This document shows, piece after piece, positions 7,617 through 54,900 of a stretch of DNA of 63,737 bases (position 1 is its first letter; every line of letters starts with the position of its first letter). The position numbers were made by a program, and so were the translations under genes. Origin of the DNA: Leucoraja erinacea (lineage: Eukaryota); contig NC_073390.1 in NCBI RefSeq assembly GCF_028641065.1, positions 27,900,264 through 27,964,000 of the forward strand. The letters are read 5' to 3'. A model generated the notes under the pieces. It was not told where the DNA came from. It did no database searches and saw only the letters and a program-made list of their open reading frames with translations.

Positions 7617-8150
7617 CTATGAGCAGAAACAAAGTGTGAAGGAATGGTGTATAACAGTTCACAAACTACAAGACCAATAGATTTCTCACAGGAAATGCTA
7701 AAGAACTGTAATATTCTTGATGAGTAACGATGAAAAGTAATAGATTGTCATACTGCTACTAATGTTGTTACATCCTTCCTTAAATAAGAGTACCAAAAGT
7801 GTACATCGTTATGTGTACTTACTAAGCTACAGGGCTTACCGATGCCCAATAGAACTCAATTATAAGGTCATTATAAACTCACTCAAATTTTCCAGAAATA
7901 AACAATAACATTGTGTTAGCTTTCCTGAGCACGTACATAACAGCCATCTGACAATCATGCAGTTAGATGCCTAGATTCCTCTATACAATGAAGCTCTGCA
8001 ATCTCTCACTATCTAGATAATGTACCTCAAAGGGGAAAGTAGCGCGGGGAAGGGATCTGAAAATTAATCATTCATTTTTATGGAACTATATAATCTTTCT
8101 TAAAGAGGCCAGTTTGTTTCTCATAGACATCAATTAGCCTGGTTTCTTAC

Positions 8151-8344
8151 CACTTCCAGTCCAAGCACTGTTCCTCGCAGAGATCCATACCTCAACAGTC
8201 TTAATCCACCAGCATTGGTAGCCACATTCCCACCAATGTGACAGCTACCTTTAGATCCCAAGTCAAGGGGCATAATAAAATCTTGTTCAGCAAGGTAATT
8301 GTTCAAATTTTCCAAAATGCAGCCTGCTTGGCATATAAGTGCTC
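8151..8344 (-). CDS. D2HGDH: D2HGDH coding exon 5 (194 bp)
   Basis: tttcag|GA GCA...GAA GTG|gtaag. Encodes [12 protein letters not shown]...[41 protein letters not shown]. Confidence 0.96.
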
Positions 8345-8728
8345 CTGAAAAAAACAGATTTACACGAACAGTAAAATGTACCCTAATTATGATTGTTCTC
8401 CCATCACCGATGAGCTGGATATGCAGTGTGAACTGTCTATAATGCACGGCAGCAACTTGCCACATTATCTTTGATATTTTCCCAACCCCAAACACTATCT
8501 GAGGAGAACAAAGGGAGCAGGCATGCCCGAATACCATCGCTTGCAATTTTCCCTCCAAATCATGCAACTCTCTAAGTTGGATAACTTTACAATCATTGCA
8601 TCTATACTAGAACTCCCTGCATTCCAGAATAACAATCAATTGATCGTGGTCTACATCTTGGGAGATTGATTGTTGTTGAGATGTCAATACTTTTATTTAG
8701 AATGGTGAGTAAAGAAAGTTGCTCTCAC

Positions 8729-8868
8729 CTGTGTTCTTGTTGAAACTGATGATGTTATTCATTTGAGCTGTTGAGACAATGATCTCATCAAACACTGGCA
8801 CACTGCCCCCCACTAATCCCGTGTTGCCACCTTGAGGGTTCACAGCTAGGTTCCGATTATAACAATAC
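8729..8868 (-). CDS. D2HGDH: D2HGDH coding exon 4 (140 bp)
   Basis: ttcag|G TAT...ACA G|gtgag. Encodes [46 protein letters not shown]. Confidence 0.95.
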
Positions 8869-10149
8869 CTGAAGAAAGAAAACAGCCTATTATCAGTGCC
8901 ACCATAATTCTAACAAATGCTGAATACATTGGGAACATCGTGCCAAACTAACCACACATTAAAACCAATACACATCAGAATTATACTAAAGTAATCATAA
9001 ATAGAGTCATAACACAAATTGAAATAGAGTCGTAAACACAAATTGCAATTGGGATCAAATTCCTTTTCATACTTTAATAATGGGTTTGTGGGGAGAATGA
9101 CATGAGATTAAGTGCAGGATTAATGCAAATGGGTGCTTGATAATCCGTGTGGAGTAAGAGAGTCGGTGGGCCCGCTTCTGAGCTGCAAAGTTTGATCAAT
9201 GGCGTAATGGTGGAATGAAAAATAACAGAAGAGTGAAAACATAATCGGAAATGGAAAACAAATCAAAAGGTACATGTGACTACCTGTTTAGATGTTATTA
9301 CTGTGGTTGCTAACAAAGTCTGGTGGATTTCCAGGCACTCCTATGTTGCATTTCACATTACACATGAAAATTTATTTTGGTGCAATTGGGAACCACCATG
9401 AAAGAAGCAAATTAATCTATCCGTAAGTCATTTCACAAAAGACCCCTTACAGTGAGAATTCTGCTACACACACATAAACAGTTTTACAGTAATCGTCATA
9501 CAACAAGCCTTTTGGCCCACCATATCCATGTTAACTTTCAAGCACCCATCATATGTATAAATTCATTTGCCGGATAAATGACTCTAAAAATGAAATTATT
9601 GTGGCCTTGTCAAACATAAGGGTTAGCACTACACGCTACGAATCCCAGCTGTGGAGACACTGGTATCGTTGTCTCGTTGTAGGACATTGGTCATTCTTTT
9701 AATCTGGATTTTTAATTCATGTATTGTGTTTTTTTTTATATATATAATTTATGATGCTTTTATAAGTGATATACTAAGATTTTATATGTACTTTATGATA
9801 TTTTTTAATATGCAATGTATTTTAATGTAATGTTGCCCCTTGTCTGGACCTCGAGTCCGTAATAAAATGTATTATTATTATTATTATTATTATTTACTAA
9901 TCCCATTGGCCAGCACTTGGTCTATAGCCTTCTATCGCTTGACAATAAGCCAGTTCGGTATTCCGAAAAACGCAAGGAATCATGGGATTTCTTAAAGGTT
10001 AAACGCTATAAATAAAAATCGAACGAAGCGCTGTAGATACAGTGAGTATAGTTGTGTCCGATTTTTTGCCTTTTTCAAGTTTGTATTTGTCAGGGGGCAG
10101 ATACAAGTTGGAGACCGGGAGGGGGGGGAGAGACTGGAACGGCTTTCAG

Positions 10150-10790
10150 CAGCTGCACGGACACTGATCCACAGCCAGGATCGAACCCATCTACACACTT
10201 CCGCAGGCGCTGCCGAACCGCCACTGGACCGTCCCCAGTCGTCGTCTCCCCACCCCACCCCCCCCCCCCCCCCCCCACTCCACTCGAGTGTCCCATCCCC
10301 GTCGGACACCTGCCCCCAGGCCCAGCGCGGGGAAGCACCAACCCCAGCTCACCTCCGCCTCTCACGCCGGGCCAACCGTCAGCCCGGACCAACAACACCA
10401 GTGGCCCCAGGCCCACATGGTGGCTCCAGAAGAACCCGCTCCCCGATGGGCCGCTACAGCGACATGTGCCAGTTCGCCCACGGCCTGGCTGAGCTGCGCC
10501 TCCTCAGCCGCCACCCCTAGTACAAGACGGACCTGATACGCACCTTGCACACCACCAGCTTCTGCCCCTTCTCTGATCTTGCGGCTGGGCAAGGGAGGGG
10601 GAAGAGGTTACTGCTGCTGCCAGCACCACCAGCAGCTCCAGCGGGCGCCCGGCCTGCCCATGCCGGCAGGGGCCCGTCCGCAGACTCTCTCTCCGACCAG
10701 GACGACTCCAGCAGCAGCGGCTCCGAGTCCCCCGTCTTCAAGCAGGGCCGGCAGCTTCCCATTTTCAGCAGGATCTCAGTGTCAGTCTGA
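10150..10790 (+). pseudogene. Decayed ZFP36/TIS11-family (tristetraprolin/ZFP36L1-like) CCCH zinc-finger gene copy
   Basis: Frame from 10452 reads [39 protein letters not shown] (family consensus KYGDKCQFAHG..ELR.L.RHPKYKTELCRTFHT.GFCPY), with TAG at 10518-10520. It ends SLSDQD..SSGSESPVF..RQLPIFSRISVS*, the conserved CNOT1-binding C-terminus. 5' limit approximate. Confidence 0.8.
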
Positions 10791-13025
10791 GGGGAGGGGG
10801 GAGGAGGTTGAGGGCTGGCGGCCAACCTGGCGGTCTGAGGGGAGGGGAGGGAATATCGAACTCGCTTATTCAAGTGCTCATCTAGATAGTACTTCCACTC
10901 GTATTTCAATCACCGTCTGGGTGAAAACAATTCTTTCTCAAATCCTCAAATTAAATCTATGGCCTCTAGGTTTAAACACCACCGATATCTATACCAACTA
11001 TGCCCCTCAGAAGTTTGTATAGTCTGTCAGATCCCCCTCACCCTCCTCCAGTTCAAGGAAAGCAACACAGTCCATCCAGACTCTCCTCAAAACTGAAACA
11101 TTCCATCTGATGCAACATTCTGTTGAATTTCCTCTGCCTTAGGTTTTTTTTAAATAATTTGTGTCAGATCACAAACATGGTAAATAGGAAAAAGCTATTG
11201 TGCTTGACAAAAGCGCTTAGGTAAATGGTGATCCAGTTGTAAGTAATCTTTTCATACTTAATAACCATGAGAGCAAAAACTGGGAGGGATGGTGTAATGG
11301 TCAACATGGAAATTATGTAATGCGCAATTTCCTCTCTCCAGTTGCATCGCTTGGGAATAGTTCTCAAGATGCTCAAACCATTAACAGGCAAGCTACACGG
11401 TCTATGATTTCAAATGTACATTCCCAGATTTTTTATAGCAAAGCGTGAGTGGGACTCCTGGCTCTTAGTGATAAAGACTGCTCTTAATTCTGCTCCTTTT
11501 AAGGAGGTAGTGAATGTTGACATTCAGAGTGGTGCTGTATTCAAGCAAGCATAGAAATTGCAGCCAGTGACTGCAACCTTTTAGGAAGTGGGTTTAGCAT
11601 GAAAGTGTTTCTGCCACAGGATGTCTTTTACCAAGGATGTTAACTATTTGGTTGAATACTGGAGGTGGTTCCCTAAACACCTGCTGGATTGCAAAGCTTC
11701 TCGAGCCACAGAACTACTCGATCAGTTCCAAATTAAAAGCATGCTTTTTATTTTGCAAGCTTAAGCTCCAACTCTCTCACTGAACCAGTTGCAGCCCAGG
11801 AAAGTGAAGCAAACCAAAGTTTGCCAGTTTATATTCAAACTAAACTTCAATCTGGAGAAGGCTTGAATGTGCACTTGAAACCTATGATCCAAAACATTTA
11901 ATATACTTAAGTAGCCTAGATCACCTTTGAGTTGATTTTCCATTCAATGTTTGCAAAGAACCTGGGAACAATGGGGCTCCTAGACAATGCGTTGCAATTG
12001 CTCAGAACAATTTTCATGGAATGATTTGTTTTGGGTTAAAGCACAATGATTGATCCTCTACTTAAGGAGCAAACTTCTCAAACCTTGAGGATTACAGTTT
12101 AATCTTTAACTGTTTTGCACAGGTTGAAGATCAAATGCTAATGATTAAACTGCTATCCCTATCTGCTAAAACATACAAAGGTAATAGCACCAGAGTTCTG
12201 TAATGGGCAATGCGCTCAAGAGCTAGAATTAACCAAACATTTTTAATGTTGGTGCCGGTGCCCTTCCCAGTGAAAAGGTGAAATATGTATTCACCCAGAT
12301 TCTGGTCATTAATGACCAGAAACAAACAGTATTAGAGTCAAATGTTGTTATATCAACCACCATCTCTTTCAGCTCCATATATCCACCAACTTCTGAGTGA
12401 AAACATTGCCCTTCAGAAAACATTGTTAACTCTTGCCCCTATTACCTTAAAGCTCTGTCCTCTGGTTCTTGATACCCCTTTCCTGGGTAAAAGCATCTCT
12501 GCTTCCACCCTGTCTATTCCCCCCATGATCTTATACACCTCTATAGAATCACCCTTCCCTGTAGCTCAGTCCCTCGGGTCATGGCAACATCCTTGGAAAT
12601 CTTCTCTGCACCCTTTCCAGCTCTAATCGCATGAGTAAAGAAGGTTAAGAGGAGACGTGCAATGTATATCATTAGGAGCAGATTTAAAAAAATATAGGGT
12701 ATGTTTAAAGAATGCTTTTTTTCATAATCTTAAATATGAGCATCCATACTTTAAACAATGTTTTACTTATATCTATGTATATTTTAAATTAATTATCATC
12801 TATATATTTTAATATATTTTAAAATTTTATTATTTTGGTACTTAATTTAATACTAATTCGAATGGGTACATGTTGTTCTTTAAATTTAGTTGTGTTTACA
12901 GAAACTGAAAGTTGAGAAAACCTTTGATAACTAAAAATTAACAAGATACGAAAAACACTTTCAAACTAAACAAAAATTTAAACACACCAAATATTACATG
13001 AAAACGAGACTTAACGATGTAGTAC

Positions 13026-13083
13026 CTGAGGATCTGGGAGATCTCTTCTGTTGTCTGAGGCCGCAGTAATGTCTGGCTACGGC
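13026..13083 (-). CDS. D2HGDH: D2HGDH coding exon 3 (58 bp)
   Basis: ctgcag|GC CGT...CTC AG|gtact. Encodes GRSQTLLRPQTTEEISQILR. Confidence 0.93.
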
Positions 13084-13220
13084 CTGCAGTAAAAAAAACC
13101 AATAAACAATCATAATTACAGGTAATAAGTAGAATAAACCAAATCACAATATTCAAAATTTGTAATCAGCATTTTTTGTAATCTCCATATTATAAATTAT
13201 TACCATTTAATATTAACAAG

Positions 13221-13525
13221 GTGGAACAGCGGTGTAGCTGGTAGAGCTGCTGTCTCACAATGCCAGAGACCTGGGTTTGATCCTGACCTCGAGTGTGAAC
13301 TGTGTGGATTTTACATATTCTCCCTGTGACCGGGTAGGTTTCTTCAGGGTGTTCCAGCTTCCTCCCACATCCCATATGCGCATTTGGAGGTTACTTGCCC
13401 TCTTTAAATTGCCCCTAATATGTAGGAAGTGGATGTGAAAGTGGGATAACATATAACAAATGAGAACAGGTGAGAGTGGACTCAGTGGGCCAAAGGGTCA
13501 GTTTTCATGTTGTATCTCTAAACCC
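13221..13525 (+). mobile_element. tRNA-derived V-SINE (HE1/HER1-like)
   Basis: tRNA-like head with A/B boxes (gtagctggtagagc; gggtttgatcc) and V-domain core (ttctccctgtgacc...cttcctcccacatccc). Confidence 0.7.
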
Positions 13526-13529
13526 AACT

Positions 13530-13910
13530 TATAGAAACGTACAAAAGTCTTAAGGGGTTGGACAGGCTAGATGCAGGAAGATTGTTCCCGATGTTGGGGA
13601 AGTCCAGAACAAGAGGTCACAGTTTAAGGATAAGAGGGAAATCTTATAGGACCGAGATGAGAAAAACATTTTTCACACAGAGAGTGGTGAATCTCTGGAA
13701 TTCTCTGCCACAGAAGGTAGTTGAGGCCAGTTCATTGGCTGTATTTAAGAGGGAGTTAGATGTGGCCCTTGCGACTAAAGGTATCAGGGGGTATGGAGGG
13801 AAGGCAGGTACAGGATATTGAGTTGGATGATCAGCCATGATCATATTGAATGGCGGTGCAGGCTCGAAGGGCCGAATGGCCTACTCTTGCACCTATTTTC
13901 TATGTTTCTA
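13530..13910 (+). mobile_element. Young CR1 LINE 3' end
   Basis: ORF ...[40 protein letters not shown] is the CR1 ORF2 C-terminus. Tail gggccgaatggcct...tctatgtttcta. Near-identical to 59345-59690. Confidence 0.85.
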
Positions 13911-14332
13911 AAACAAAAACATTAAGAGTCAAGGGTCAAGAGAGTTTTATTGTCATATGTCCCAGATAGAATAACAAAATTCTTACTTGCTGCAGCACAA
14001 CAGAACACTTAGTACACTTTAAATAGTACTTAAATAATATGATAAACGAGAGAGAAAAAAATTCAGTGTGTATATATACTCATATTCACATATGTTTTTA
14101 TATAACATACATATATATATATACACATATACTCAAAAAAACAACAATAACAGTGCAATACTAAAAATAATAATAATAATAATAATAATAGTCTATTGGA
14201 GTTCAGAGCTTATGAGGTTGTTTAAGTGAAGTCAATGAAACTGTAGATGCTGGAAATCTAAAACAAAAACAGAAAATGCTGGAAATACTCAGCAGGTCAG
14301 GCCACATCTGTGGGAAGAGGACCAGTATCAAT

Positions 14333-14362
14333 CAAGGATCATACTTTGCTCTATGATCTTTG
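14333..14362. mobile_element. 30-bp micro-insertion with CAAGGATCATA/TATGATCTTTG termini and 8-bp TSD
   Basis: Flanked by the direct repeat GTATCAAT (14325-14332, 14363-14370). Confidence 0.7.
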
Positions 14363-15830
14363 GTATCAATGTTTCAAGTAGGACATTCGGACAAAGGATC
14401 TTTCATCTGAAATGTTGTCTATTTCTCTTCCCACAAATGCAACCTAACCCGAGTATTTCCAGCATTTCCCGTTTAATATTAGTTAGGAAACATAGCCCCC
14501 GCCGATACAATGTTCAGACAATTTCATTCTTACAGGATTTATCTAACCAGATCACCAACATATATAACCAATTATCAATGGTTAATACACAGGAATAATA
14601 ATTAAAATTAATTATTCCAGAATGTAACTCCATTCATAAGATCATGTGATAGGATAGGAGCAGAATTAGTCCATTCGGCCCATCAAGTCTACTCCACCAT
14701 TCAATCATGGCTGATCTATCTCTCCCTCCTTACCCCATTCTACTGCCTTCTTCCCAAAACCTGACACCCTCCTCATTGTCTAGTATGTAAACTACTTATA
14801 AGATCTCTCTCTGCCTGTAACCTGCTCACAGATATCAAATATTCTACATATAAATCCCATGAGCACTCACAACTGTAATTCACTCCCTAGTATGTGATAC
14901 TCTGTATGAACCTTGCTTCAATTCCTCAGTTAGATCGCTGCTCACAAATCAAACTGAAAACAGTGAATCGTCAATGACCACTGGGGCCATTGTGCATTCA
15001 CATTTCATTGTGGAAGTCTAGGTACTGCTGTCACCCATTCCTGCTCACTTTGCTCATTTGTGACTTTTCCCGGTGTAAACCTAAGGAATGATTGAAGACT
15101 TCAGCTATTTATGAAATATTCATGGCAAAAAATATACTGAAAATATGCTTTGTTGCACCGTGTAAATTAACTTTTAATGGTAACCGGCACATATTAAACA
15201 TCTGATGTTTATATACTCATACTCAAACTGGATCAACTAATCCAGTTTCATTAATGGATTATCAAATTCTTCAATTATTCCAAAATTATGAGCTATTGTT
15301 CATAACAGTTCAGCAACACCCTTAATTTAAAGTGTAGCTTTCTTAAACTTTAAAATGTTTACAAAGCAAATGAAAAATGGTACCTTTTATTTTCTGGTTT
15401 GCTGCCTGTGATCGGTCATTAATGGAGCTTACTGTTAGCCACTTGATATCATTATCACTGATATTGGAGATCTACTTGAGTTGAAATTGCATGCCAGGAG
15501 AAAAACAGACCCGGAGTTTCAATGTGCTTGCTGTTTTCCTATTCCTTTTTTTGTTTCAAGCCTTTATTATTCTTTCTGCACAGCTTTCTTCACAATGCAT
15601 GAGAACAGCTCAAGGCAAGTCTTCCTCTTTTATTAGAGAATTCCTAATCTTCATGACCTATCCATGCCCTCAAATTTAAATATAGGACAAATTAAAAGAT
15701 TTAAAATAAAAATAACAAAGGTCTTCAACCTGAAAAGTTAGCTTTAATTGGTGGGTATTGCCAACATTTTCTATTTTAAATTAACTTAAATGATTATCCC
15801 ATTTAAACCTTGCAGTAAATGCAATCCCAC

Positions 15831-16206
15831 CTCGTAACGTCCGCATCCAGTCTACGTTGCTGGCTTCCAACACATCAGGATCGGTTACCACACGGCCTGG
15901 CAGCAGATGTTCAAAGAACTTCAAGTCTTCTTTCGTGATAGATGCAAAGGCTAAACGCTGGACAGCGTACTGCATACTTGTGAACTCCACCTCACGGTTT
16001 CTGCAAGTGGCAGCCACGTGAAATGGCCTCCTCCATACTTGCAGCTGGTGATAGTAGCACTTGTAGGGTACGGGTGGCAAAGAGTGATAGGTTTGCACGT
16101 ACGGTTGTAATTGTCTGTACATAGATGAGCAGCGGGGCAACCCTCGTTCGAAAAGAGCTCTGTGGCAATGCATTGTACAGTGCAGCAGGACTTCTGAGCA
16201 GCCCAT
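15831..16206 (-). CDS. D2HGDH: D2HGDH first coding exon (exon 2, acceptor at 16212): presequence and start of the FAD domain
   Basis: ccttag|GTTCAC ATG...CGA G|gtggg. 376 nt, phase 1 as in human. Ends YAVQRLAFASITKEDLKFFEHLLPGRVVTDPDVLEASNVDWMRTLRG. The exact start Met is uncertain. Confidence 0.88.
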
Positions 16207-33481: not shown

Positions 33482-33593
33482 TCTTACTACCTCTGCCTCC
33501 CGTGTTCTCATAGTCACTGGATTCCAACTTTTCCTTCAGATCAGCTTCAAATCTGGCCAGTTCAGCATCCAGCCGCCTGATGTGTTTATCAAC
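33482..33593 (-). CDS. ING5: ING5 exon 4 (112 bp)
   Basis: ttcag|GTT GAT AAA CAC...AAG A|gtaag. Encodes [37 protein letters not shown]. Confidence 0.95.
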
Positions 33594-35791
33594 CTGAAAT
33601 AACATACAAATTAATAGCAATATCTACAAGACATCTGAAATGTACACATATTCAAATATACATCACTGTGCCAAAGCACGTACAATAAGAGCTTTAATCA
33701 AAATAATCTGGGAGTAGGTGGGAAATATCACACGGTTTGGACACTCAGTTCTTGGCCCAATAATGTGGCACAAATGTTACTGCACCCAAGATTCTTGCTG
33801 GTTTGTTTAAAATTTTACATCTCTGACTCAGAGAAACATACTTTTTTTTAAGGCATTGATGCTTCCTACACAGCTAGACTTAACTGACAGTTTTCAATCT
33901 ATGTCTAATCTAAGCAAACCAGTACAATTTTGTCACGCCACCTTTGATTCTGAGCTGTCCTGAGAACTGAAAAGGCAATTGCTTTGAAACAGTGTTGCAG
34001 AAAACAGAAAGTGAATAAAGATGAAGTGAATAGCTGCTACTCTATTCAGCAGGAGAAATGTTGATGCCGAGATAAACGTACTATATCTCTAATTATTTGT
34101 GACCTGTCTGCTTAGCATAATGTTGTTTTTACTATTTCCAAACAGTTTTAATGTGTCAATTTAAAAGTTTTCCACTGAATATCTGACTACCCACATTCCC
34201 CTCCTGGCCCCCCCTGTTAATTGACAACATTATTAATTTTCTCTCGTCAGATTTTGTCTATTTCTTGCAGACTGACAATATAATCCCTCATCACGAATTA
34301 ACACTTTACCTCATTTCACTTAATTCCCATATCTAATCTCCATTACCTGTACACTATCTTCTTAATTCACACCAAGCCTTTTTTGAACTCATTGGCTGAA
34401 TCTCTCTATTCAAGTTTAAGCCCCAATTGCAAGACTAAAATAAGCCTTATCAAAATTTCGATTGAGCCTGTATGTAATCCTGATACAGGTAACTGAAGCC
34501 TCCTCTTTCTTCTTCTCTGCTTTCAATCTTTATTTAAATGACTGGAACTTCCTCCTCCAAAGCATATTGGCCATCCATCTGGGTGGGATTGCAGTCATAT
34601 GATTCCATTCTTATTTATGCTGCCAGATAATCACTGCAATGGCTTCCCTTCCCACACCTCTGGCTTCTCTTCCCACGCCTGCCATATCTCTGCTGCCTAC
34701 CAAACCTGAAATATCCTGTACCTCGCCCATCTATTTCTCATCAGTAGCTCTCCCCTCAACATCATCTGATTAACACCGTATCAGGTTACAAATGCAGTGA
34801 TGACATTCTGCTCTACCTCATGGCCATTCAAGCGAAAATGTCCTACCAAATTACTATTTGTTTAACATCCACTACTACAAGAGTAGAAATTTTATAGCCA
34901 CAGAAGGGAAGAAAAACAAAACAAATACAACAGCACATGTTACAATTCCATTCTGGAGCCACCCACTATCCCTCACCTTGGCAACCATTTGATTGAACCA
35001 GGCAGTTTTTACCCTGGTGTTATACATTGCCATACATTCACAATCCAATTGCACAATTGCTTTAGCTCAACTACTGGTATAACACTCATCCAGGGCTTTT
35101 CCTCTCGATTAACTAACCAATGCACTCTTAGCATCCCCCCTCACTCAACCTTCCATGAACTACGATAAGTTAAATAAAAATCTTCTGCTTCCCCCCCTGC
35201 CCCTTGTCCTAACTCAGTTCACCCATTAACTCCATTCTTGCTGACCTGAATTAGTTGTCAATTAAGCAACATTGTGCTTCTAAAATTCTCATAATCACTG
35301 ATGCTTTCAAATTCTTACAAGGTCTTGTCCTTCCCCATCTCTGTATTCTCCTCCAACCCTACAACTCCTTAGGATATGAATACGTTTCAATTCTGGCCTG
35401 AATCATATCTGAATTTTATCATTCTCATTACTGCTATGATTTTAGCTGTCGATCCCCCAGGCTTTTGAAAGTCTTCCCTACATCTCTTTTCTTGTATAAA
35501 TTGCTTCGTAAAACTTGTAATTTTAATCGGGCTTAATATCTCCTTGTGCATGTCAAATTTTGTTTACAGCGCTCTTGTAAATGCTCAGAAAATGTGTGTA
35601 GGCATTACACTCATGAAATCTGCTTTTTTTCTGTTTCATGTAATGTCTGTTAGGACTTGGGAAAATGCCAGATACAGACCTCTTATATTAAGGAAGTATT
35701 CCTTAAGGTTTTTATCATTGCATGTTCCATGATTAAATCATTGGCCATCAAATCCTGTACTTTCGAAGATTTTGTACGTGGTAGCTATTTA

Positions 35792-38308
35792 CAGTAAAAC
35801 TCAGATAATCTGGCACCTCAGGGGTTTGGTGGTGCTGGACGAGCAGATTTTCCGGACCATTGTATGTTACACCAACACGCTTTTATTTCACTTTTTTTTT
35901 TCACGTTACACAGTAGCATAATATTTGTAATACAGTAAATACATATACTTTATCTAATTTAATGTGGGCTACATAATATTGTAATACTGTACTGATTTGC
36001 CATAATAAAGTAATGATAGTAAAGCAATAAATTCCATATAATGTACAGCACCACGGTCTACTCACCAATATTGTAGAGATGACTTCAGAAGTTATCCATG
36101 GCAGCATATTAGTATGAAACTTATTTAACAGCATTTAAACAATAGTGTATACTGTACTTATCCATCAATCACAACTTAAACTATTTTCAGTTCATAATAA
36201 GTTACAGTACTGTGATCATACATAAAAATACACATTTTCAGTTCTGCTTAATGTACAGTACTGTACTTATAAAATAGAGAAAATTTAAATCCTTCAAACC
36301 AGCTGCACTACTATATCAGCCGCAAGCAATTGGTCATCAAGGTTGTCTTCAATATTCAGTCTTAGGCTCAATATCAGAAACAATAATTAGATCTGGTGTA
36401 GAAGAAGTCGAAGGAGTAGGGCTACATGGACCTGCTTTCTTGATTGCTTTCTTGAACATGTCTCTGAGGTCTGCCTGTTTATTTGATGCTGCTTTTTTCT
36501 CATAGAAATTGTTCAGTATAATATGCAAGTTCATTACTTCTGCAGCACTGTACTGGCTGTTGTACTCTGCAAATTCCACAAACTTTGTTATAAATTCTGT
36601 AGCCTGATGCCAGGTGTATCTAGTTCCTCCTTCTTGTCCCTCATAATTTTCCTCTTCTTCCATTACCTTGACCTTATTAAGATTAAAATCCATGTCAATT
36701 ATCTGTGCATCTGTTACAATTTCAACTACTTCTGGGTCCCCATCTTCATCAAACCATTCCTCCATTTCTTCTTCTGTAAGTTTGCTGACAGGATTCTCAG
36801 TTGGAGCCTCTTCCATTATTTTCAAAATGTCTCCGAGTCCAGTTTGTCTAGCACTGATTCCCTCAAACTCTTCTTCCTTTAAATAATATCGCCCAAATTT
36901 TACACTAGGCCATATTTTCCTCCACGATCTTTGCAAGATGATACTTGAGACATCCTTCCATGCTAAAGCTGCAGCATAAATAGCATCTTTAAGATTAAAT
37001 GAAGCTTGAAAATCTTGTACAATGCAATTAGAATTCAGCAATTTGCGAATGAAAGATCCCTTGTAAGCAGTTTTGAATCTCTGAATTACCCCCTGATCCA
37101 TTGGTTGGATGAGTGATGTGACACTGGCAGGCAGATACTCAGCAGAAATATTGCCACAAACAAGTTCTGAAGCAGGATGATGTGCCTTACAATTATCTAT
37201 TAGAAGAATAGCTGTACTATCTTCAGGCAAGCCCAGCCTTTTAAAATTTTCTTTGACCTCTGGAACAAAATGATGAAAAAACCACTCTTTGAAGAGCTCC
37301 GCAGTCATCCGGGCATTTTCTTGAGCATCATAGACAACGGGTAAATAAGTGATACCATTGAAAGCTCTAGATTTCTTGTATTTACCAACAACAAAAAGTT
37401 TCAGTTTATGTCTACCAGAAGCATTACCACAAACAAGGACTGCGATCCTGTCCTTATTTCGTTTAAAACCCTGAGCACATTTTTCATCTCCACCATCTAA
37501 CATACTGTTTGGCAAACAGCGCCATAATAGCCCTGTTTCATCCGCATTGTAAACTTGGTCGGGTGACAATTTATGTTTCTGAATTAACGGCTTAAAAAAT
37601 TCACCAAAGTCCTCTGCAAATGTATGATTAGCTGACTTGGGCTCTCCTGAAACAGACGGCTTACGAATACCATGACGATCTTTAAAGTTACGAAGCCAAC
37701 CTTCAGAAAATGCGCATTGCTCAGTTAGCTTCATTTCCTGATGAAAGTCTTTTGCTTTTTCAATGAGCATAGGTCCAGTTATTTGCTTCCCTTCAGAACG
37801 CTTAGTAAGAAACCACTTATACAAAGCGGAATCTAACTGAGACAACTTTGGCTTTTTCAAGGTATGCCGTGCATCAATTCCTTTAGTGGTATCAGACTCA
37901 GCTAGAAATAACTGCAATTCGCCTTTCCGTTTCTTGATGTCATATATTGTAGATGATCCAATGTTGTATTCTCCCATGATAACATGACGATTCTCACCTT
38001 CCTCAAGCCGTTTAATGATCTCCAATTTCTGATGTATTGTTAGAGTCACATGCTTCCTTTTTACACTTTTACCATCCCTACCATCATTACTCATATTAAA
38101 ATCCATTATGAATTGAGGGTGGCTTGAAAAAATAAAGATACGGCGTAAACTAAACAACACTCAGCAATGCACTTGGCATTTGGCAGCGCAGAAAATGTCG
38201 AAACAGACTAGAAAAGACTCATTCAGTTCCTGATGCTAATGAGTGAGCCAGTTGCTGAATAATCAGGACCTCCGAATAATTGGACACCGGATTACCAGAG
38301 TTTTACTG
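35792..38308 (-). mobile_element. Full-length Tigger/pogo DNA transposon (2517 bp) in ING5 intron 3
   Basis: TIRs CAGTAAAACTCAGATAATCTGG and CAGTAAAACTCTGGTAATCCGG (19/22 identical). TA duplications at 35790-35791 and 38309-38310. Contains a transposase ORF. Confidence 0.88.
36349..38106 (-). CDS. Intact Tigger/pogo (TIGD/jerky-like) transposase, 585 aa from the first ATG
   Basis: CENP-B-type HTH pair (KRKHVTLTIHQKLEII...SSTIYDIKK; LDSALYKWF...ITGPMLIEKA...FSEGWLRNFKDRHGI). DDE_1 triad NADETG / LIDNCKAH / QPMDQG with DD32D spacing. C-terminal PIP-like QADLRDMF. No stops or frameshifts. Confidence 0.85.
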   Translation of the reverse strand: MDFNMSNDGRDGKSVKRKHVTLTIHQKLEIIKRLEEGENRHVIMGEYNIGSSTIYDIKKRKGELQLFLAESDTTKGIDARHTLKKPKLSQLDSALYKWFLTKRSEGKQITGPMLIEKAKDFHQEMKLTEQCAFSEGWLRNFKDRHGIRKPSVSGEPKSANHTFAEDFGEFFKPLIQKHKLSPDQVYNADETGLLWRCLPNSMLDGGDEKCAQGFKRNKDRIAVLVCGNASGRHKLKLFVVGKYKKSRAFNGITYLPVVYDAQENARMTAELFKEWFFHHFVPEVKENFKRLGLPEDSTAILLIDNCKAHHPASELVCGNISAEYLPASVTSLIQPMDQGVIQRFKTAYKGSFIRKLLNSNCIVQDFQASFNLKDAIYAAALAWKDVSSIILQRSWRKIWPSVKFGRYYLKEEEFEGISARQTGLGDILKIMEEAPTENPVSKLTEEEMEEWFDEDGDPEVVEIVTDAQIIDMDFNLNKVKVMEEEENYEGQEGGTRYTWHQATEFITKFVEFAEYNSQYSAAEVMNLHIILNNFYEKKAASNKQADLRDMFKKAIKKAGPCSPTPSTSSTPDLIIVSDIEPKTEY

Positions 38309-38394
38309 TACTTTTGAGGGAAAGTCCTGCCTTTTTACTCCAAATCAAAAATGAATGCACCTTAGATTCCCCTGCAGTCCAATAGACCACCCAC

Positions 38395-38561
38395 CATTTC
38401 ATATGTCTCCATTGCTAGCTGCACTTTGTCATCACTATATTCTCTGCATTTATTGTAGGCTAGCTGAATCTTCTTCAGATGGTCCACTCGTTGATCCGAG
38501 GACAGGCTCTTGACGTTTGAAATATATTCAGTTGCCAATTTGTCGATCTCTACCTTTTTAT
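38395..38561 (-). CDS. ING5: ING5 exon 3 (167 bp)
   Basis: tgcag|AT AAA AAG...GAA ATG|gtggg. Encodes [56 protein letters not shown]. Confidence 0.95.
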
Positions 38562-40236
38562 CTGCAAACAGTAAGCATCATAATTAGACAGATTCAAGAA
38601 AGTAAACATTGGCCTCTTGTATACCATTTTTACCCACTCCTCTGTACACCTGCATTTCCCTATCCTCTAATTGGCAAGTTCTCGCACATTACATATTTGC
38701 CCTTCAGTTTAATGATGTAATAAAATTCTTCATAATCATTAATTTCCCTCTTCACCAAAAGTTGATGCCCTGCCAATAAGAGCCCTAGCTCACAACTGAG
38801 CTCAAATTAATATCAACTCCTTAACTTCCGATGGACACTGCAGAATGAAAATCATGAACAGAAACTGTGAATTAATCCCAACCCCGTCTAAATTTAAGAG
38901 TGCTAAATCCACAGTCATGTTTTAAACTGGTTCAAAATGTAACAGAATGTTTTAACTCAAAGGAGTGTTGGTGGACTACTTAACTTTGAAATACAAGAAA
39001 TGGTAACTGAAAGGGAATAAAGTACAGAAAAAGAAAACCATCCAATAGGTTTCCCCTTTTAAGGAAACCTATATATTCTCACCTTCCTCAAGCCATTTAA
39101 TGATTTTTAGTCACATGCTTCCTTTTTATACTTCTACCAATATATATATATATGTCAAGATAATGTTTTCATTGATAAATTAGACAATGACCAGCCAAGG
39201 TTTTTCCAAAATTATTGTCACTTGCAATATGATAACTCCTAATTTGTTACTACAATGGTTGAGATGAGCATTCTCTCTACATGCTGGTAAAACATTACTT
39301 TTAATTATCACTCAATCAGTCTTGCTCTCAATATGTACAAGTTTCCAAAGTACATATCAAAGGATTAATTTCCTATTTAATCAGCTCAAACCACAAATTA
39401 ACCTTCAGCACTGCCCTATCACCTCATTCTCTCCCTTGTGCTTTGGTCACAGAAGCACTGAATAATAATTTCATTGGTATAGATTGAAGGGATCAAATAT
39501 AAAAATCATTGTATCTGACTATACATGATTATCTCTCATTCTAGCATAATCTAGCTCATCACTGGCCTGTAAGAAATATTAAGAGGGAGTGGAAAAAACA
39601 AGATGGCCAAAGACATAAGATTTTAGGATAACCTCAATAGAAGATACATTTAATGTAGAATTGTAGAATATGGGTCTGTTTGGTGTTAAGTGTTGCACAG
39701 AAAGGCTTAGCACAGAAAGCACAGAAACATGGAAATATTTTTCAAGAATTAATTAAAGAGCAAGACTCAATCTCTGTTTGATTTGTTACATATGAATCTC
39801 TTGGTAGAACGTCCTTTAATAGAACAGAACTTCAGATTTCTGAACCTGAGGTCATCAGCAATAATACAAACCTGAGAACCACCGGCCTAATAAGTCATAA
39901 CCCTAAACTTCCTTACAATCTTGAAAAATAAAAGCCATTTAACACTTCTAAAAACCCACTGTCAAATGTAGGAGCATGATCATGTTTTCCAAGATTGAGG
40001 GAAGATAAAAATTGAATTGATGGCAAAAAAAATAATTACCAAGGCCAATTTATGAATTGCATTTTAAGAGGGACAATATTTCTCTGTGTAAATAAAACAC
40101 ATAACTAATATCCATTATTGCCAGATTTACGTTGGTGTTAAAAAGGACTACATCCCACTTTTGCATAACTACTGAGCTGCACAAGTCAAACTCATGAAAT
40201 TAGATGAATACATTTCCAAAAAACTACATGGATATA

Positions 40237-41892
40237 CAATGCCCTCCTTAATGTTTGGGACAAAGACCCTTCATTTATTTATTTGCTTCTGTACTCCACA
40301 ATTTGAGATTTGTAACAGAAAAAAAAATCACATGTCGTTAAAGTGCACTTTGTCAGATTTTAATAAAGGCTATTTTTATACATTTTGATTTCACCATGTA
40401 GAAATTACAGCAGTGTTTATACATAATCCCCCCCATTTCAGGGCACCATAATGTTTGGGACACAGGAATGTCATGTAAATGAGAGTAGGCATATTTAATA
40501 TTTTGTTGCATATCCTTTGCATGCAATGACTGCTATGAGTCTGCAATTCATGGACATCAACAGTTGCTGGGTGTCTTCTCTTGTGATGCTCAGCCAGGCC
40601 TGTATTGCAGCCATCTTTAGCTTATGCTTGTTTTGGGGGCTAGTCTCCTTCATTTTTCTCTTCAGCATAAAAAAGTCATGCTCAATTGGGTTCAGATCAG
40701 GTGATTGACTTGGCCAACTCAAGAATTATCCATGCTTTAGCTTTAAAAAACTCCTTTGTTGCTTTAGCAGAATGTTTGAGATCATTGTCTTGCTGTAGAA
40801 TGAACCATCAGCCAATGTGTTTTGAGGCATTTGTTTGAACTTGAGCAGATAGAATGTGTCTATACACTTCAGAACTCATAATGCTACTATCATCAGCAGT
40901 TGTATCATCAATGAAGATAAGTGAGCCAGTACCTTCAGCAGCCATACATTCCCAGGCCAGAACACCCCCACCACCTTGTTTCACAAATGAGGTGGTATGC
41001 TTTGGATCTTGGGCAGTTTCTTCTCTCCTCCATACTTTGCTCTTGCCATCACTCTGATATAAGTTTATCTTTGTCTCATCTGTCCATAAGACCTTTTTCC
41101 AGAACTGTGGTTGCTCTTTTAAGTACTTCTTGGCAAAATGTAACCTGACCATCTTATTTTTGGCGGCGACCTAGTGTTTTGCATCTTGCAGTGTAGCCTC
41201 TGTATTTCTGTTCATTAAAATTTCTGCAGACAGTGGTCATTGACAAATCCACACCTGACTTCTGAAGAGTGTTTCTGATCTGTTGGACAGGTGTTTGGGG
41301 ATTTTTCTTTATTATAGAGAATTTTTCTGTCATCAGCTGTGGAAGTCTTCCTTGGCCTGCCAGTCCCTTTGTGATTAGTAAGTTCACCAGTGCTCTCTTT
41401 CTTCTTAATGATGTTCCAAACAGTTGATTTTGGTAAGCCTAAGGTTTGGCTGATGTCTCGCTTAACAGTTTTATTCTTGATTCTCAGTCATAATGGCTTC
41501 TTTGACTTTCATTGGCACAACTTTGGTCCTCATGTTGATAAACAGCAGTAAAAGTTTTCAAATGTGATGGAAAGATTGCAGAAAAGACTAGGTGCTGAGA
41601 GCTCTCTTATACCTGCATTAAGGAGGCAATTAAACACACCTGAGCAATTGCAAACACCCGTGAAGCCATGTGTCCCAAACATTATGGTGCCCTGAAATGG
41701 AATGACTATATATAAACACAGCTGTAATTTCTACATGGTGAAACCAAAATATATAAAAATGGCCTTTATTAAAATCTGACAATGTGCACTTTAACCACAA
41801 TTGATTTTTTTCTATTAGAAATCTCAAATTGTGGAGCACAGAGGCAAATAAATAAATGATGGGTCTTTTCCCAAACATTATGAAGGGCACTG
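40237..41892 (-). mobile_element. Tc1-family (IR/DR type) DNA transposon with a defective transposase
   Basis: About 230-bp TIRs beginning CA(A/G)TGCCCT(C/T)C.TAATGTTTGGGA, with an inner direct repeat and TA flanks. Frameshifted transposase about 41533-40495 (WKKVLWTDETKIN; WPSQSPDLNPIEH). Confidence 0.9.
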
Positions 41893-41978
41893 TATTAGAA
41901 TAACAAAGCAAACATATAAAGTCTGCAGGACCATCAGTAGAAAGAAGTGTTGATTTGTCAGTGGCTCTAATACAAGTA

Positions 41979-42980: not shown

Positions 42981-44083
42981 TACTTTGCTTACGAAGTAAG
43001 ATATATTTAACATTATTGACATAATACATGTTATTCATGGTTTTAATAAAACGATATCTATGTCAAAGTCTCAATTTCATGCTTGTTTTTAAACATAGCT
43101 GATAGCCCAATGCGTCTGAGGCTCATGGGCTACAGTTGCAAAGAAGCATCTGCATCTGAAATATCTATTAATATTTGCCAGCATGCACAGAGCATGCAAG
43201 ACAATGTTTTTGGCAGAATATCAGTCAACCATCTATTCTGGTATATAAATGGAAAGGTACTAAAATTGCAGAGCCACAGCAGTTTTAGGAAAATGAAAAT
43301 AGCCAGGAGATCAAAGGAAGAATAAATCACACTCTAATATATGGTTAGATTTGCGGTAAGATTTAGGGGGCAGAGGATTTGTAACAGCTACACAGGCAGT
43401 TGCAAAAAGCGCATCGCAAATGGCTGTAAATAGTCAAGCATTTGTTGCTGCACCTTAAAGCACCTTAAAGCACAGGGTACAAGAACAAGGAGATAAGCTG
43501 AACTTGTATATGCTGTAGTTATTCCGGTTAGTCATCTATTTAATTAAAATTCATGATTTTATTTTATATTGTTTCCAATACTGAAAGGAGGATATCAAGT
43601 AAATTTGTGAAAATCACATTAGCAAATCTATGAATGTTTTATAGAAACAGTTTGTGTAATTGTTTGGAAAACCAAAGGTTATATTAAAAAGTAAGGGTAG
43701 CAAACAGCAAAATTGGAATTGCACTCATTGGCATATCAGGAGAACATCAGCACAGATTCAATTATAAATGCATGATTCTACTATAATGCCAATTGATCAC
43801 ATTATTTATTCTAATAGGTTGAAAAAGTTCATAGGACAATATAAATTGAAAAATATATTGGATAATTATTTCCTGAACTGCCCAGTATCCCTTAGAATGT
43901 TAAGTTGCGTTAGTTGGAAATCAACTTGAGGGACAAAATTAGAAGCTTAAAAATACAGTTTTACAGCTTTATGCTAAAATCTGCACGCTTACAGGGAACT
44001 GGTGCATTGCACAATAGAGGACAACAAAACCCAAGCTCTAAGCCCCAGTGTTTCTACATATTTCTTAGTTATGCTGCAAGCAC

Positions 44084-44155
44084 CTTCAGTTCTCTGATCC
44101 AAGTCCCGCATCAGATGGAAGATCCGCTGAAGTTCACAAGGAAGATTTTCAATAC
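44084..44155 (-). CDS. ING5: ING5 exon 2 (72 bp)
   Basis: gacag|GT ATT GAA AAT CTT CCT TGT...GAA G|gtgct. Encodes SIENLPCELQRIFHLMRDLDQRTE. Confidence 0.94.
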
Positions 44156-48479: not shown

Positions 48480-48990
48480 TCCAGGGTGCGGAAGGAGAAG
48501 CCTCCACGCATGCGCAATGTTGGCCGCGGATGGCCGGAAACTCTCAAACCATCTATAAACTGAAGGAAAACTCCCTGGTGCGGCACGAAAAGCATTGTTT
48601 ATGTTGTCAATGATAATCGAGAAGCTTGGCCCTACGTGATTGTGCTCGGCACGATCACTCAGACGTGGGCCTCCAGTTATCACCTCCCCCCACCCCCTCG
48701 GGCTCGAGTAACGCCGACTGCAAACGGAAGCACGCCTGGGCCCATTACCCGGGGAATAAAGCGAACCGTTCGCTTTAACAGGTGCAGCGGCTGTCTGTGG
48801 TCCAGCGCCAGGTCAGCAGCCCGAGGTACTCACTGTCCAGGTAATGTTCCAGGTACATCGCTGTCGCCATCTTGTCATCCTCTCAGCCCTCCCGGCGTGC
48901 GCAGCACCGAGCATGCGCGTCGGCCGCCAACAGGCGGTGCGTTGTGATGGCAACCGCGCAAAATTACAGGACGGGCCCAGCAAGTGAGGG
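48480..48990 (-). promoter_or_regulatory. ING5: ING5 CpG-island promoter / first-exon region
   Basis: CpG-rich. NRF1-like CGCATGCGCA (48507-48516) and GCATGCGCG (48911-48919). YY1-like AAGATGGCG overlaps the ATG. Confidence 0.6.
48834..48870 (-). CDS. ING5: ING5 exon 1, coding part (37 bp)
   Basis: aag ATG GCG ACA GCG ATG TAC CTG GAA CAT TAC CTG GAC A|gtgag, giving MATAMYLEHYLD, as in the human ING5 N-terminus. Confidence 0.96.
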
Positions 48991-51539: not shown

Positions 51540-54110
51540 CGCATTCCTTACACTATTATTCCCATAATACCACATCTCCCTTTCTTTGAGAACAAAGGGT
51601 GGACTACCTTTGTCTCTGCAGGTCTTAAGGGGTTTATTCTGCCCTTTTGCTGGAAGACCTGTCCCTGATTCAAGCATGCAAAATAGAAATAAAATAACTT
51701 CCGCGTTACCATACTGTGAACTATTACTTTAGCAGGCTGTGTTCTTCAAAACTTAAACTCTCAGGTTTCAGGTAAATGTACCAGGTTTACAGAACAATTT
51801 CACATGACATTTCACTCTCTTTTTCTTTATTGTAGAAAACAGATCAATAAATCACAAATCAAGTCTCTTCGGCTTTCTAACCTCTCTCCCACACCTGGTC
51901 CGCACAGTCTCTGTGGTGGGGCCCTCTCTGCTGGGTGATGTTGTCACTGGTGGAGCTGGCTCTGGTGGAGCTGAATCTTCTCCCACCGGTGGCTCATCAG
52001 CGTCGACTACCCCACTGTTGGTCTGCAGCGGCACCAAGTGCTGCCGTTCCTCCTCAGTGTGCCCTGAGGCACCTGGACGATATAAGAGCGAGGGGTATTG
52101 TGTGTAGATAGCACTTTGCCCTGGACTCGTGCATCGGTGATCCACACATCCTCCCCAGGTACTAGTGGCTCCAAAGGCTTTAAAGTGGCTACCTGAGAAC
52201 TGGGGCCCATTGTCACTTTTAAGAACTTCACCAATTCCATGACGAGAAAACATGGATTTCAGGTGTACCACCACATCTGTGGACCTTGTGGGTGACAGCA
52301 GCGCAACTTCCACATACCTTGAGAAATAATCTACTACTAGTAGATAAGTCTTGTCTTTCAGCGTGAATAGGTCAGCTCCCAAGGTTTGCCAAGGCCTGTC
52401 TGGCATCTCCGTTGGCATCAGCGGCTCTTTGACATTCCTTCTCTCTTGGATGCAGGTTCTACATTTCAGCACCATGTCATTCAGCTGTCTGCCTGCAGGT
52501 GCTCACGTAGGCTGCTCAGATAATCTCCACTGACAGGAATGTTGCTGATGACAGAGTCTACGTAGATGTTGGTGTCCTCTAATAGGCTTGTGTCTGTGTG
52601 TGTTCTTGCGGCTCTCAGAGGAGCACGCGATAAGGTGTTGGCTGTCCCCAGGCTTTTGCCAGGGACATGATTGACTGTATAGTTGTACCTCATGAGTCTC
52701 ATCCTAAATCTTTGGACTGTTGGTGGGAGGTCATCCAAAGCTTTCCCTCCCAGCAGACTCACCAACGGCTTGTGGTCAGTTTCCAGCTCGAATGGTCTTC
52801 CCAGGATGAAACAGCTGAACCTTTCACATGCCCACGTCGCAGCCAATGCCTCCTTCTCTACTTGAGCATAACGCTGCTCTGTTGGTGTCATTGACCTGGA
52901 CGCATATGCCACAGGTGACCACATGGCATCGCTTTTCTGCAGCAGGACTGCCCCCAGGCCAAAGGAAGAGGCATCAGCAGAGATCTTTAGAGCACTGTTT
53001 GGGTTGTATAATGTGAGCACTGGTGTGGATGACAGCTCTGTTTTTAACTGATCAAAGGCGGCCTGCTGCTCTGTCCCCCAGTACCAGTGGTTCTTCTTGG
53101 ACAGCAGGTCTCGTAGCACTTTGTCTTTTTCAGCCAGGTTAGGCAAGAAGCGGCCAAGCTGATTGACCATGCCCAGAAAACTCCTGAGTTCGCTGACATT
53201 TTTGGGTGCATCCATCTCTTGTACTGCGCTCGTCTTCTCTGGATCTGGCTTCACTCCATCTGCTGAAATCACATGACCCAGGAATCTGACTGTGTGGCGT
53301 GTGAGCTCACATTTGTCCATGTTGAGCGTAATGCCGGCCTTATGTGCCTTCTCTAGCACCGCATGTAGCCGCACATCATGCTCCTCCTGCGTCTGTCCCC
53401 AGACCAGGATGTCATCCATGTGACACAGTACCCCCTCCAGGCTACCGGTCACTTCTGTCATCATCATCCTTTGAAAGTGCTCGGGGGCTGATGCTATGCC
53501 AAAGGGTAGACGGTTAAAATAGTAGCGCCCAAAAGGCGTGATGAAGGTGGTGTATTTGGCAGACTCTTTTGTCAATGGTATTTGCCAAAAGCCCATGTTG
53601 GCATCTAATTTGCTGAATACTGTTGCGCCAGCTAGCATGCCCAGAGTGTGCTCGACAGAAGGCAGGATAAACTTTTCTCTGCATACTGATCCATTCATCA
53701 TTGTGAAGTCCACACAAATGCGAACATCACCTGTTTTCTTCGGCACCACCACCATCCCGGCACACCAATCAGTCGGCTCCTCAATCTTGGTGATTACGCC
53801 CATCTTCTCCATACGGTCTATCTCCTTCTTCACTTTTCCCATAAGCGGCAGATGGACTCTGCGTGTCGTGTGGAGAGAGAAGGGCACAGCCTCTGGCTTC
53901 AATTTAATTGAGTATGGCCTCCGAACAGACCCAAGCCGCTACACAGCTTCGGATATTGTTGTTTCACTGATTCCACGGTGATGCCATTAACCCTGCACAC
54001 AAGCTGAAGCCGTTCTATGGCAGGCCTTCCCAACAGTGCAGTGTGCAGGTCTTTTACTACAGCTTTTACTACATAAATGTTCTCTATGGCCTCAAGGCCG
54101 TGTTACTGCA
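51540..54110 (-). mobile_element. Gypsy LTR retrotransposon, internally deleted pol and start of the 3' LTR
   Basis: RT (LDANMGFWQI, LPFG, HMDD) and RNase H (DAS..GLGAVL, ETDHKPL) in ORF 52481-53902. Integrase (VVDYFSRY, SDNGPQF) in 51852-52475. PPT AAAGAAAGGGAGA followed by TG at 51574. Confidence 0.92.
52481..53902 (-). pseudogene. Gypsy pol fragment (RT-RNase H), open for 473 codons but truncated on both sides
   Basis: ORF track translation. Lacks intact gag/protease, and the integrase is disrupted. Confidence 0.85.
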
Positions 54111-54129
54111 CACGTTTGGGCTCAGTCAT

Positions 54130-54900
54130 CATGACCGTGCCGCAATGATCCTTCACATGGACGGTATGGGCGATCGAAGACCCTCCGCCCTGAGGGTCGG
54201 ATGCTGGCTTTGATGGATCGGCACCGTCGCTGCCTGCTTTTCGAGCAGGCCTTCCTCGAACAGGTGCCTGATGATATCCGCCTGATGCTCACTGGCGCCG
54301 ACTTCAACGATCCTCAACAACTCGCGGAGAGGTCTGACGAACTGTGGATGACAAGTCACCAGGAGGTCTGCGCCATCAGCCGCCCGGCTGCACCGGCTCG
54401 ACTACTGCCACGGTGGCCACAGGAGGAGGGCCTGCTACAGGAGGAGGGCCCTTCTGAGGAGCCGCCGCAACGTCCTGAGACCCGTAGTAGACACCACTGG
54501 TGCTACTATCACCTCCGTTTCGATGCGGAGGCTCGACGCTGCCAAAATCCCTGCACGTTTCGGGGAAATGCCTCGGCCGGTCATCTGTAGAGGCGACTGC
54601 GATCGGCCTGAACGAACGCCTCTACGTCCATGACCACCACACTGGCCGCTGTTTCCTCGTGGACTCCGGTTCCATCGACAGCATCTTTCCCCCGACCAGC
54701 CGCGATACCTGTGCTGGTAAGATGGGCCCTGTCCTCTCGGCCATGAACGGGAATGACATTTGAACGTACAGTACTCGGACCCTTGATCTCACTTTCGACT
54801 CCCACCCGTACAGGTGGAAGTTTGGCATCGCTAACGTTGCATAGCCGATCTTAGGGGCTAATTTCCTGCGTCCCTTATCGTGCACGTGTGTGGCGGTCGT
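54130..54900 (+). mobile_element. Second Gypsy fragment (CsRn1/Kabuki-like gag-protease)
   Basis: Gag with CHCC knuckle CYYHLRFDAEARRCQNPC. G GGA AAT slippery site at 54563-54569. Protease FLVDSGS in the -1 frame. Confidence 0.75.

Follow-up and report, generated by a model that had tools for sequence, protein, structure and literature searches.

A complete, transcribed Tigger transposon in intron 3 of ING5 is probably a selected host gene of batoids

Does the uninterrupted transposase reading frame inside an intron of ING5 in the skate Leucoraja erinacea belong to a transposon that decay has so far spared, or to a gene that its host has kept? The frame lies in a 63,737-nucleotide stretch of contig NC_073390.1 (the window, to whose numbering all positions refer), and an earlier note on this DNA had proposed a domesticated gene driven by the ING5 promoter. 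The host gene is indeed ING5: all eight exons were located, and exon 3 matches chondrichthyan ING5 at 95%. On the minus strand, exon mapping places coding exon 1 at 48834..48870 and exon 2 at 44084..44155, both ending in phase 1, while ING5 protein comparison and RNA contigs place exon 3 (167 nt, ending in phase 0) at 38395..38561; exon 4 (33484..33593) is spliced to exon 3 in the normal mRNA.

Within intron 3, a complete Tigger element extends from 38310 to 35790 on the minus strand (2521 nt including both TA dinucleotides), in sense orientation to ING5. Repeat comparison places the 22-nt left terminal inverted repeat at 38287-38308 (38287..38310 with its TA target-site duplication) and the 22-nt right repeat at 35792-35813 (35790..35813 with TA). 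As the earlier note had reported, the repeats differ at three of 22 positions, and the element sits near the exon 3 donor on the same strand, its repeat beginning 86 nt beyond the exon end at 38395. TA flanks each repeat. Short terminal repeats beginning CAGT, together with a TA duplication, are a hallmark of Tigger elements, and CAGTA/TA is listed for a Tigger row in supplement 3 of PMC7386202. Between the repeats lie a 5' untranslated part (38107..38286), which holds two short upstream ORFs (ATG at 38222 and 38179) and an acceptor-like site before 38122; the transposase-derived ORF (36349..38106; 1758 nt, 585 aa), which runs from 38106 to 36349 with no internal stop; and a 3' untranslated part (35888..36348), into which RNA contigs from two runs extend as far as 35966. 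Past the ORF stop, where it had been described, stands a candidate poly(A) signal, AATAAA (35887-35882, minus strand), with an A10 run just upstream (35900-35892).

The protein has the architecture of a Tigger transposase, with Pfam matches above cut-offs to CENP-B_N (residues 16-64), HTH_Tnp_Tc5 (89-149), and DDE_1 (218-395), and a DDxD catalytic triad of D189, D304, and D337, the last two of which are separated by 32 residues (DD32D). Both HTH domains and all three aspartates are thus present as first described, but several other near-invariant residues of the DDE domain are altered. The PIP-like motif, previously placed at the C-terminus, can be recognised by the general PIP consensus as QADLRDMF, but about 34 more residues follow it; Mobula hypostoma has N in place of its M. 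An AlphaFold model (mean pLDDT 73.7, pTM 0.58) gave its best matches to CENP-B on DNA and to Mos1 complexes. CENP-B (PDB 1hlv) is the best sequence match to the two-HTH DNA-binding region, which is alike in the two proteins (E 1.2e-6; TM 0.66 to the target), and the mariner-type DDE core of the model resembles that of Mos1, an active mariner enzyme (PDB 3hot, 4u7b, 5hoo), at 10-14% identity. Whereas CENP-B, which binds centromeres, has lost a recognisable triad (PMC7386202), the batoid protein keeps its own.

A DNA search of the 2.19-Gb genome yielded 41 matches (40 of 41 candidates scored), namely the ING5 copy itself, which is the sole full-length one, three internal fragments at two places (67-73% identical), and 37 short end matches; a protein search, with 75 of 118 candidates scored, yielded 74 matches, in which no other long match exceeds 38%. 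These counts are lower bounds, and the same kind of search did recover a young Tigger family (L032 and its relatives). DNA, protein, and repeat-pattern searches of the genome found no near-identical copies and no young non-autonomous elements with the same ends; the element is thus single-copy, as is expected of a domesticated pogo gene, and the earlier doubt as to a young active family falls away. Two sibling fragments (L002 and L003; L004 was excluded as a duplicate of L003) differ from the ORF at 98/366, 100/363, and 112/367 sites of codon positions 1, 2, and 3 (27, 28, and 31%, pooled by hand), with 13 gap openings in 1125 columns. Judged by their sequence, they are neutrally decayed copies of the same family, about 30% diverged, and the family itself appears long dead.

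Loss of the terminal repeats is a criterion commonly used for domesticated transposases, and here both repeats and both TA dinucleotides are still present. The repeat-pattern search of the genome returned 44 ends (reversed control, 0). Among 29 fetched ends besides that of the ING5 copy, seven have a partner repeat (at most five mismatches) at 263-557 nt; none has coding remnants, and their subterminal 60 nt are 46-48% alike pairwise. Across the 29 repeat-selected loci, with four poorly assigned ones kept in, the ING5 copy's ends are 72-78% identical to the family majority and the sister ends 56-58%. An earlier end comparison (92.5% versus 79.5% to the majority) was discarded, as its ends had been chosen by similarity to the ING5 copy and were therefore biased. 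The earlier argument from imperfect ends is weak by itself, and the ends of the ING5 copy are in any case better kept than those of its sisters.

The young multi-copy family, whose copies are 93-98.5% identical at the nucleotide level, shows that the searches do see recent families. It also bears on a role in defence, whereby the protein would occupy Tigger ends or poison related transposases, suppressing incoming Tigger families: skates and rays have seen an expansion of TcMar elements (PMC12361510, section 7), and the same idea has been put forward for CSB-PGBD3 (PMC2268245). However, the young family is just 36-38% identical to the ING5-intron protein, and none of its ends within 1.5 kb of its ORF matched this repeat; moreover, the element's own family is long dead, yet constraint persists on recent branches (see below). 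We regard defence as rather improbable.

Orthologs were recovered from other batoids. A 90% cluster of nine members comprises the ING5-intron protein, its counterparts in Amblyraja radiata (99.8% identical to the skate protein), Rhinoraja longicauda (96.4%), and Mobula hypostoma (90.8%; 587 aa), and five Logan proteins (99.5-100%). The three named orthologs contain no frameshift or stop, and their identities (90.8-99.8%) exceed the 74% above which domesticated pogo orthologs lie in PMC7386202. In M. hypostoma, the accessions of the transposase (XP_062902305.1) and of ING5 (XP_062902306.1) are consecutive, and both proteins are encoded on a 205,008,019-nt contig. RefSeq accession numbers run along the chromosome, and this copy therefore likely occupies the same ING5 locus. 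Of what the earlier note had proposed to check in relatives, an intact ORF was found in all three named batoids, and the evidence for a shared locus covers M. hypostoma at the level of accession records, the two other skates having been compared as proteins. No ortholog of 30-1024 aa is on record in Mobula birostris, Hypanus, Hemitrygon, or Pristis, though their ING5 is (15 of 33 ING5 cluster members were listed), and no shortened batoid ortholog (<321 aa) appeared among 108 matches. Three named relatives on record thus have the ortholog and four other batoids do not; in these four it may be lost, broken, or unannotated.

Outside the cluster, the closest match among the best 120 of 474 is 60% identical, and shark proteins among the same 120 reach 47-54% in local alignments and belong to other clades. 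In a quick IQ-TREE tree of 70 rows (66 fetched proteins chosen by hand and four from the skate genome), the batoid clade has a support of 100 and falls within a branch, supported at 98, that excludes mammalian JRK; its stem is 0.36 and its crown 0.04-0.06 long, and its branching follows the host order. Two candidate orthologies were rejected: mammalian JRK (a separate branch in the quick tree, ~40-47% identical) and the shark JRK-like genes (other clades, 45-47% over the alignment). The tree thus sets the batoid protein apart from both groups and favours an independent domestication, likely a batoid-specific one. The range proposed earlier, a chondrichthyan-specific gene, was too wide, the recorded range being batoid (skates and one ray).

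Published dates bracket the insertion. The shark-skate split is put at 286 Mya in PMC10115646 and at 259 Mya in PMC12361510, while the myliobatiform-rhinopristiform and electric ray-skate splits are put at ~188 and 212 Mya in 10.1101/2025.02.26.637739. We infer that the insertion postdates the shark-batoid split (259-286 Mya) and predates the separation of skates and rays, which lies at least 188 and probably ~212 Mya back. As a host gene, the element has likely persisted for at least ~190 million years. Separate landings, in skates and in Mobula, of an element recently active or transferred horizontally would account for the complete ends, the TA duplications, and DD32D, as well as for the patchy record among rays and for nearest relatives that include non-vertebrate ones; but the single copy with siblings that are all decayed, the M. 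hypostoma accession consecutive with that of ING5, and a protein tree that follows the host order, with damaging-looking changes shared, render this reading very improbable.

Has the ORF been under selection as a protein? We examined where amino-acid changes fall, at the protein level, relative to neutral mutation of the skate coding sequence, using 164 columns conserved at ≥80% among 119 homologs. Between the skate and Mobula, five of 54 changes fall in such columns, against a neutral expectation of 15.0 +/- 3.2 (0 of 1000 simulations as low); with 41 mammalian-JRK-like rows removed and a CpG boost added, the expectation rises to 16.4-16.6. The mean conservation of changed sites is likewise low, both on the deep branch (0/1000) and on each of the two short skate branches (P 0.009-0.026), although on the latter two the number of changes in highly conserved columns was not significant (P 0.18-0.47), nor was a BLOSUM test for Mobula (P 0.13). 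Eight differences require at least two nucleotide changes where 1.3 are expected, suggesting that hits pile up at tolerant sites; in a crude estimate of omega from such multi-nucleotide changes, no uniform model fitted. In simulated neutral decay, at an assumed indel rate, the frame stayed intact in 11 of 2000 trials at 0.05 per site and in 0 of 2000 at 0.10. By this protein-level proxy, the earlier suggestion of purifying selection is supported, and the sequence comparisons point to purifying selection on the transposase, of moderate strength, as ING5 itself is 97.9% identical between skate and Mobula and the ORF 90.8%.

The locus may in part simply mutate slowly, its ends being well kept and third positions being little more diverged from the siblings than first and second positions. 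This leads to a further alternative, a neutral relic in a slow-mutating transcribed intron, where the target of any selection would be the poly(A) signal or a truncated ING5 isoform rather than the transposase. The well-kept ends and small third-position excess agree with it, as do the slow evolution of skates (PMC10115646), the four batoids with no ortholog on record, and the position of the ORF behind a long upstream frame. It fails to explain, however, why changes avoid conserved columns to a degree reached in none of 1000 simulations, why multi-nucleotide differences are in such excess, and why two lineages separated for at least 188 million years show no stop or frameshift, and we consider it quite improbable. 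Constraint on the protein would imply that the frame is translated.

Transcription of the element was evident in assembled contigs from two runs, which we presume to be RNA and which hold spliced ING5 joints. Element depth is ~7, and depth is zero at 34083-35204, 38571-39692, and 43059-43619; the element is thus expressed within an otherwise silent intron, answering the earlier call for RNA coverage. In run X1, the exon 3 contig (38393-38561) has a depth of 14.2, a contig that crosses the donor (38107-38422) 6.7, the contig of the element (35966-38133) 7.2, and the spliced exon 4-5 contig 8.7; the exon 3 depth may be compared with spliced (8.7) plus read-through (6.7) forms, with the proviso that contig depth is a poor expression measure and that contigs drop rare forms. 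Run X2 gave two contigs over the element, 36282-38289 and 35966-36181, besides a spliced contig of exons 3-4 (depth 10.1). The read-through contig holds 28 exon letters and overlaps the contig of the element by 27, not 30, letters; its start at 38422 presumably marks a branch of the 31-letter graph at the donor. No joint was seen in raw reads, the mapping of which over 16.8 kb is dominated by repeats. Raw single-cell reads (run X24, of which about 1 in 100 was read) are on the sense strand, with a peak at 35766-36326 (6.67 versus 0); with 3.67 in the adjoining bin, 35205-35765, some reads may have been primed from A-rich stretches of the intron. In run X22, which holds poly(A) reads from another species, the level was low, at 1.39 in one bin. 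Among the runs listed as holding the sequence, none is recorded as RNA, which weighs neither for nor against expression. Taken together, the contigs of two runs and the sense reads of X24 show the transcription expected of a domesticated pogo gene.

The earlier link to the ING5 promoter appears to take the form of read-through at the exon 3 donor, and not of splicing or fusion; such read-through is likely the main source of the mRNA. The contigs run unspliced past the donor, GTGGGT, through the start of intron 3 (38311..38394); the ING5 frame stops 10 codons into the intron, and the transposase ORF starts ~256 nt later, after the two short upstream ORFs. An early stop with no later junction is not expected to cause NMD decay. 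An in-frame ING5 fusion was rejected, given that exons 1-3 end in phases 1, 1, and 0 and that, of two pyrimidine-rich acceptors, one opens on a stop and the other needs phase 2. No ING5-transposase fusion protein was found among the best 120 of 474 matches (321-1024 aa) or among 58 exon-3 matches; in the RNA read mapping, which shows just the best joints, rare ones may have escaped notice. A splice into the acceptor at 38122 is unsupported: no RNA evidence for it was seen, and the run X2 contig 36282-38289 crosses the site unbroken. Were ING5 exon 1 or 2 (both phase 1) spliced to 38122, the frame would end at a TAA sharing bases with the transposase ATG (TAATG, 38108-38104), a stop-restart arrangement. 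The annotations of a skate and of Mobula birostris include an ING5 isoform of 210-211 aa that begins at the Met of exon 2 (P0226, P0236); a first exon of this kind would shorten the frame ahead of the transposase ORF.

What the protein does is less easily read. The DD32D aspartates are invariant in all nine members of the 90% cluster, and the DDE region is the least changed relative to Mobula (13/211, or 6.2%, versus 6.6-10.2% for the HTHs). At the same time, W266R, P310H, P246S, and K298T are common to all batoid copies, at columns that are 94-97% conserved (W266R occurs in 0 of 118 homologs), and batoid copies depart from consensus in 12-14 of the 164 conserved columns, where the homolog median is 8. 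From this pattern we infer a phase of early damage, followed by constraint; transposition has probably been lost, while residual nuclease activity may persist. A gene domesticated but kept for cutting, as a nuclease or recombinase that is site-specific and still active on DNA, would fit the three invariant aspartates and a DDE domain as conserved as the HTHs, which argue against a non-transposing role, and also the retained repeats and TA dinucleotides and the match of the fold to Mos1 complexes. Retention of cutting activity has been argued for SETMAR and PGBD5. On the other hand, the four substitutions and the excess of departures speak against it, the genome searches recovered neither young copies nor young MITEs bearing these ends, and mammalian JRK keeps DD32D/E too (PMC7386202, passage on Table 1). 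We consider this alternative unlikely, and a DNA-binding, non-transposing role is predicted with modest confidence.

Domestication itself, as first proposed, is very likely, being supported by the single copy, decayed siblings, intact orthologs, expression, and protein-level constraint. The fuller reading, a complete, single-copy, transcribed Tigger (pogo) transposon that has been a selected, DNA-binding and non-transposing host gene since before the split of skates from stingray-type rays, we hold to be reasonably probable. Under this reading, the element would have entered ING5 intron 3 on the batoid stem, after the shark-batoid and before the skate-ray split. Some transcripts from the ING5 promoter would bypass the exon 3 donor and terminate at the poly(A) signal that the element supplies. 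The resulting mRNA would carry first a short ING5 frame (~102 codons, without the PHD finger) and then the transposase ORF, the latter translated through re-initiation or leaky scanning. Both CENP-B-type HTH domains are predicted to bind the family's terminal repeats, both its own and those of scattered relics, and the DDE fold may be retained as a scaffold or weakened nuclease. A bolder version deserves little credence at present: the two-frame mRNA would take about half of ING5 transcription, the ends, TA, and a working DD32D would have been kept for ~200 million years, and the protein would bind its own left repeat, 86 nt past the exon 3 donor, set the balance of full and truncated ING5, and so connect a histone-acetylation subunit with Tigger relics that form a batoid-specific network.

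Domestication of pogo transposases is already known to recur, and the batoid case alone overturns nothing; published cases are, however, nearly all tetrapod or mammalian. JRK, JRKL, TIGD2, TIGD5, TIGD7, and CENPBD1 likewise derive from a whole transposase with CENP-B_N, HTH_Tnp_Tc5, and DDE_1 (PMC7386202). The batoid protein shares DD32D with JRK (DD32D/E; PMC7386202), but is ~40-47% identical to JRK, lies on another starred branch, is confined to batoids and to ING5 intron 3, and retains its repeats and TA. RefSeq names the batoid proteins 'jerky protein' or 'jerky-like', an annotation that covers the ORF but misstates its origin. For cartilaginous fish, the parts of PMC7386202 consulted list whale shark and elephant shark JRK-like sequences alone, as pseudogenes, and neither its passages and supplements (six names, two class terms) nor passages of PMC7325037 name a skate or ray. 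The shark JRK-like proteins of Chiloscyllium (GCC36032), Rhincodon (XP_048474049), and Pristiophorus are also intact Tigger-derived ORFs with DD32D-type spacing, but at 45-47% identity and in other clades they are not orthologs. The closest parallel in arrangement is PGBD3, in intron 5 of CSB/ERCC6 (PMC2268245): both are sense-oriented domesticated DNA transposons in an intron of a chromatin gene that supply an alternative 3' end, and both have non-autonomous relics elsewhere (hundreds for PGBD3). The PGBD3 transcript is about as abundant as that of its host, the batoid counterpart being a rough contig-depth estimate. PGBD3 is, however, a piggyBac element of ~43 My that forms an in-frame spliced fusion protein (PMC2268245), whereas the batoid element is a Tigger of at least 188 My, with unspliced read-through and no in-frame fusion found. 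The literature searched, with subscription papers outside its scope, yielded no published ING5-transposase link or skate or elasmobranch Tigger domestication. The batoid gene would be a dated, lineage-specific case, at least as old as JRK and CENP-B; the whole element is still readable, so that the steps of insertion, early damage, and later constraint can be traced; and it appears to divert a large share of the transcripts from the chromatin regulator ING5, in a group of fishes whose body plan is being actively studied.

Several further observations were made. Two metagenome scans gave no batoid DNA (51 pattern matches, 0 confirmed; 37 loci, best 57%). In the nearest known clade (56-60% identical), N replaces the first catalytic D (metagenome contigs L091, L092, L094, and L095/L096; P0002-P0004). 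Its loci are 88-93% alike across 5.6-7.7 kb, flanks included, with one repeat-like end found, and by sequence this clade is likely another independent domestication, at one locus in a group of related hosts. A pair of shark JRK-like proteins (Chiloscyllium P0046 and Rhincodon P0164) forms its own clade, with a support of 100, beside the JRK-containing group, and is possibly a shark domestication. In the skate genome, the young family (L032-L040, L042-L045, L050, L052, L054, L058, and L060) has a few intact frames of 591-596 aa. Six other intact Tigger-derived ORFs of 540-565 aa (L041, L049, L055, L046, L047, and L053), four of which have cluster members in other skates and none a member listed from a ray, are candidates for further skate domestications.

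Elsewhere in the window, the neighbouring elements are broken, as the earlier note had stated. The element in intron 2 (40234-41895), which we take to be a Tc1 on the basis of its motifs, has inverted repeats of ~230 nt that are 89% alike and a broken frame, with no open stretch longer than 134 codons on the minus strand; a Pfam search of a 114-aa piece gave no match, and the element is heavily covered by reads from other copies. In the Gypsy-like element (51852-54590), pol is split into separate frames of 453 and 207 aa, with reverse transcriptase/RNase H and integrase apart. Exons at 8130-16206 match FAD_binding_4 and likely belong to D2HGDH, a gene that adjoins ING5 in human too.
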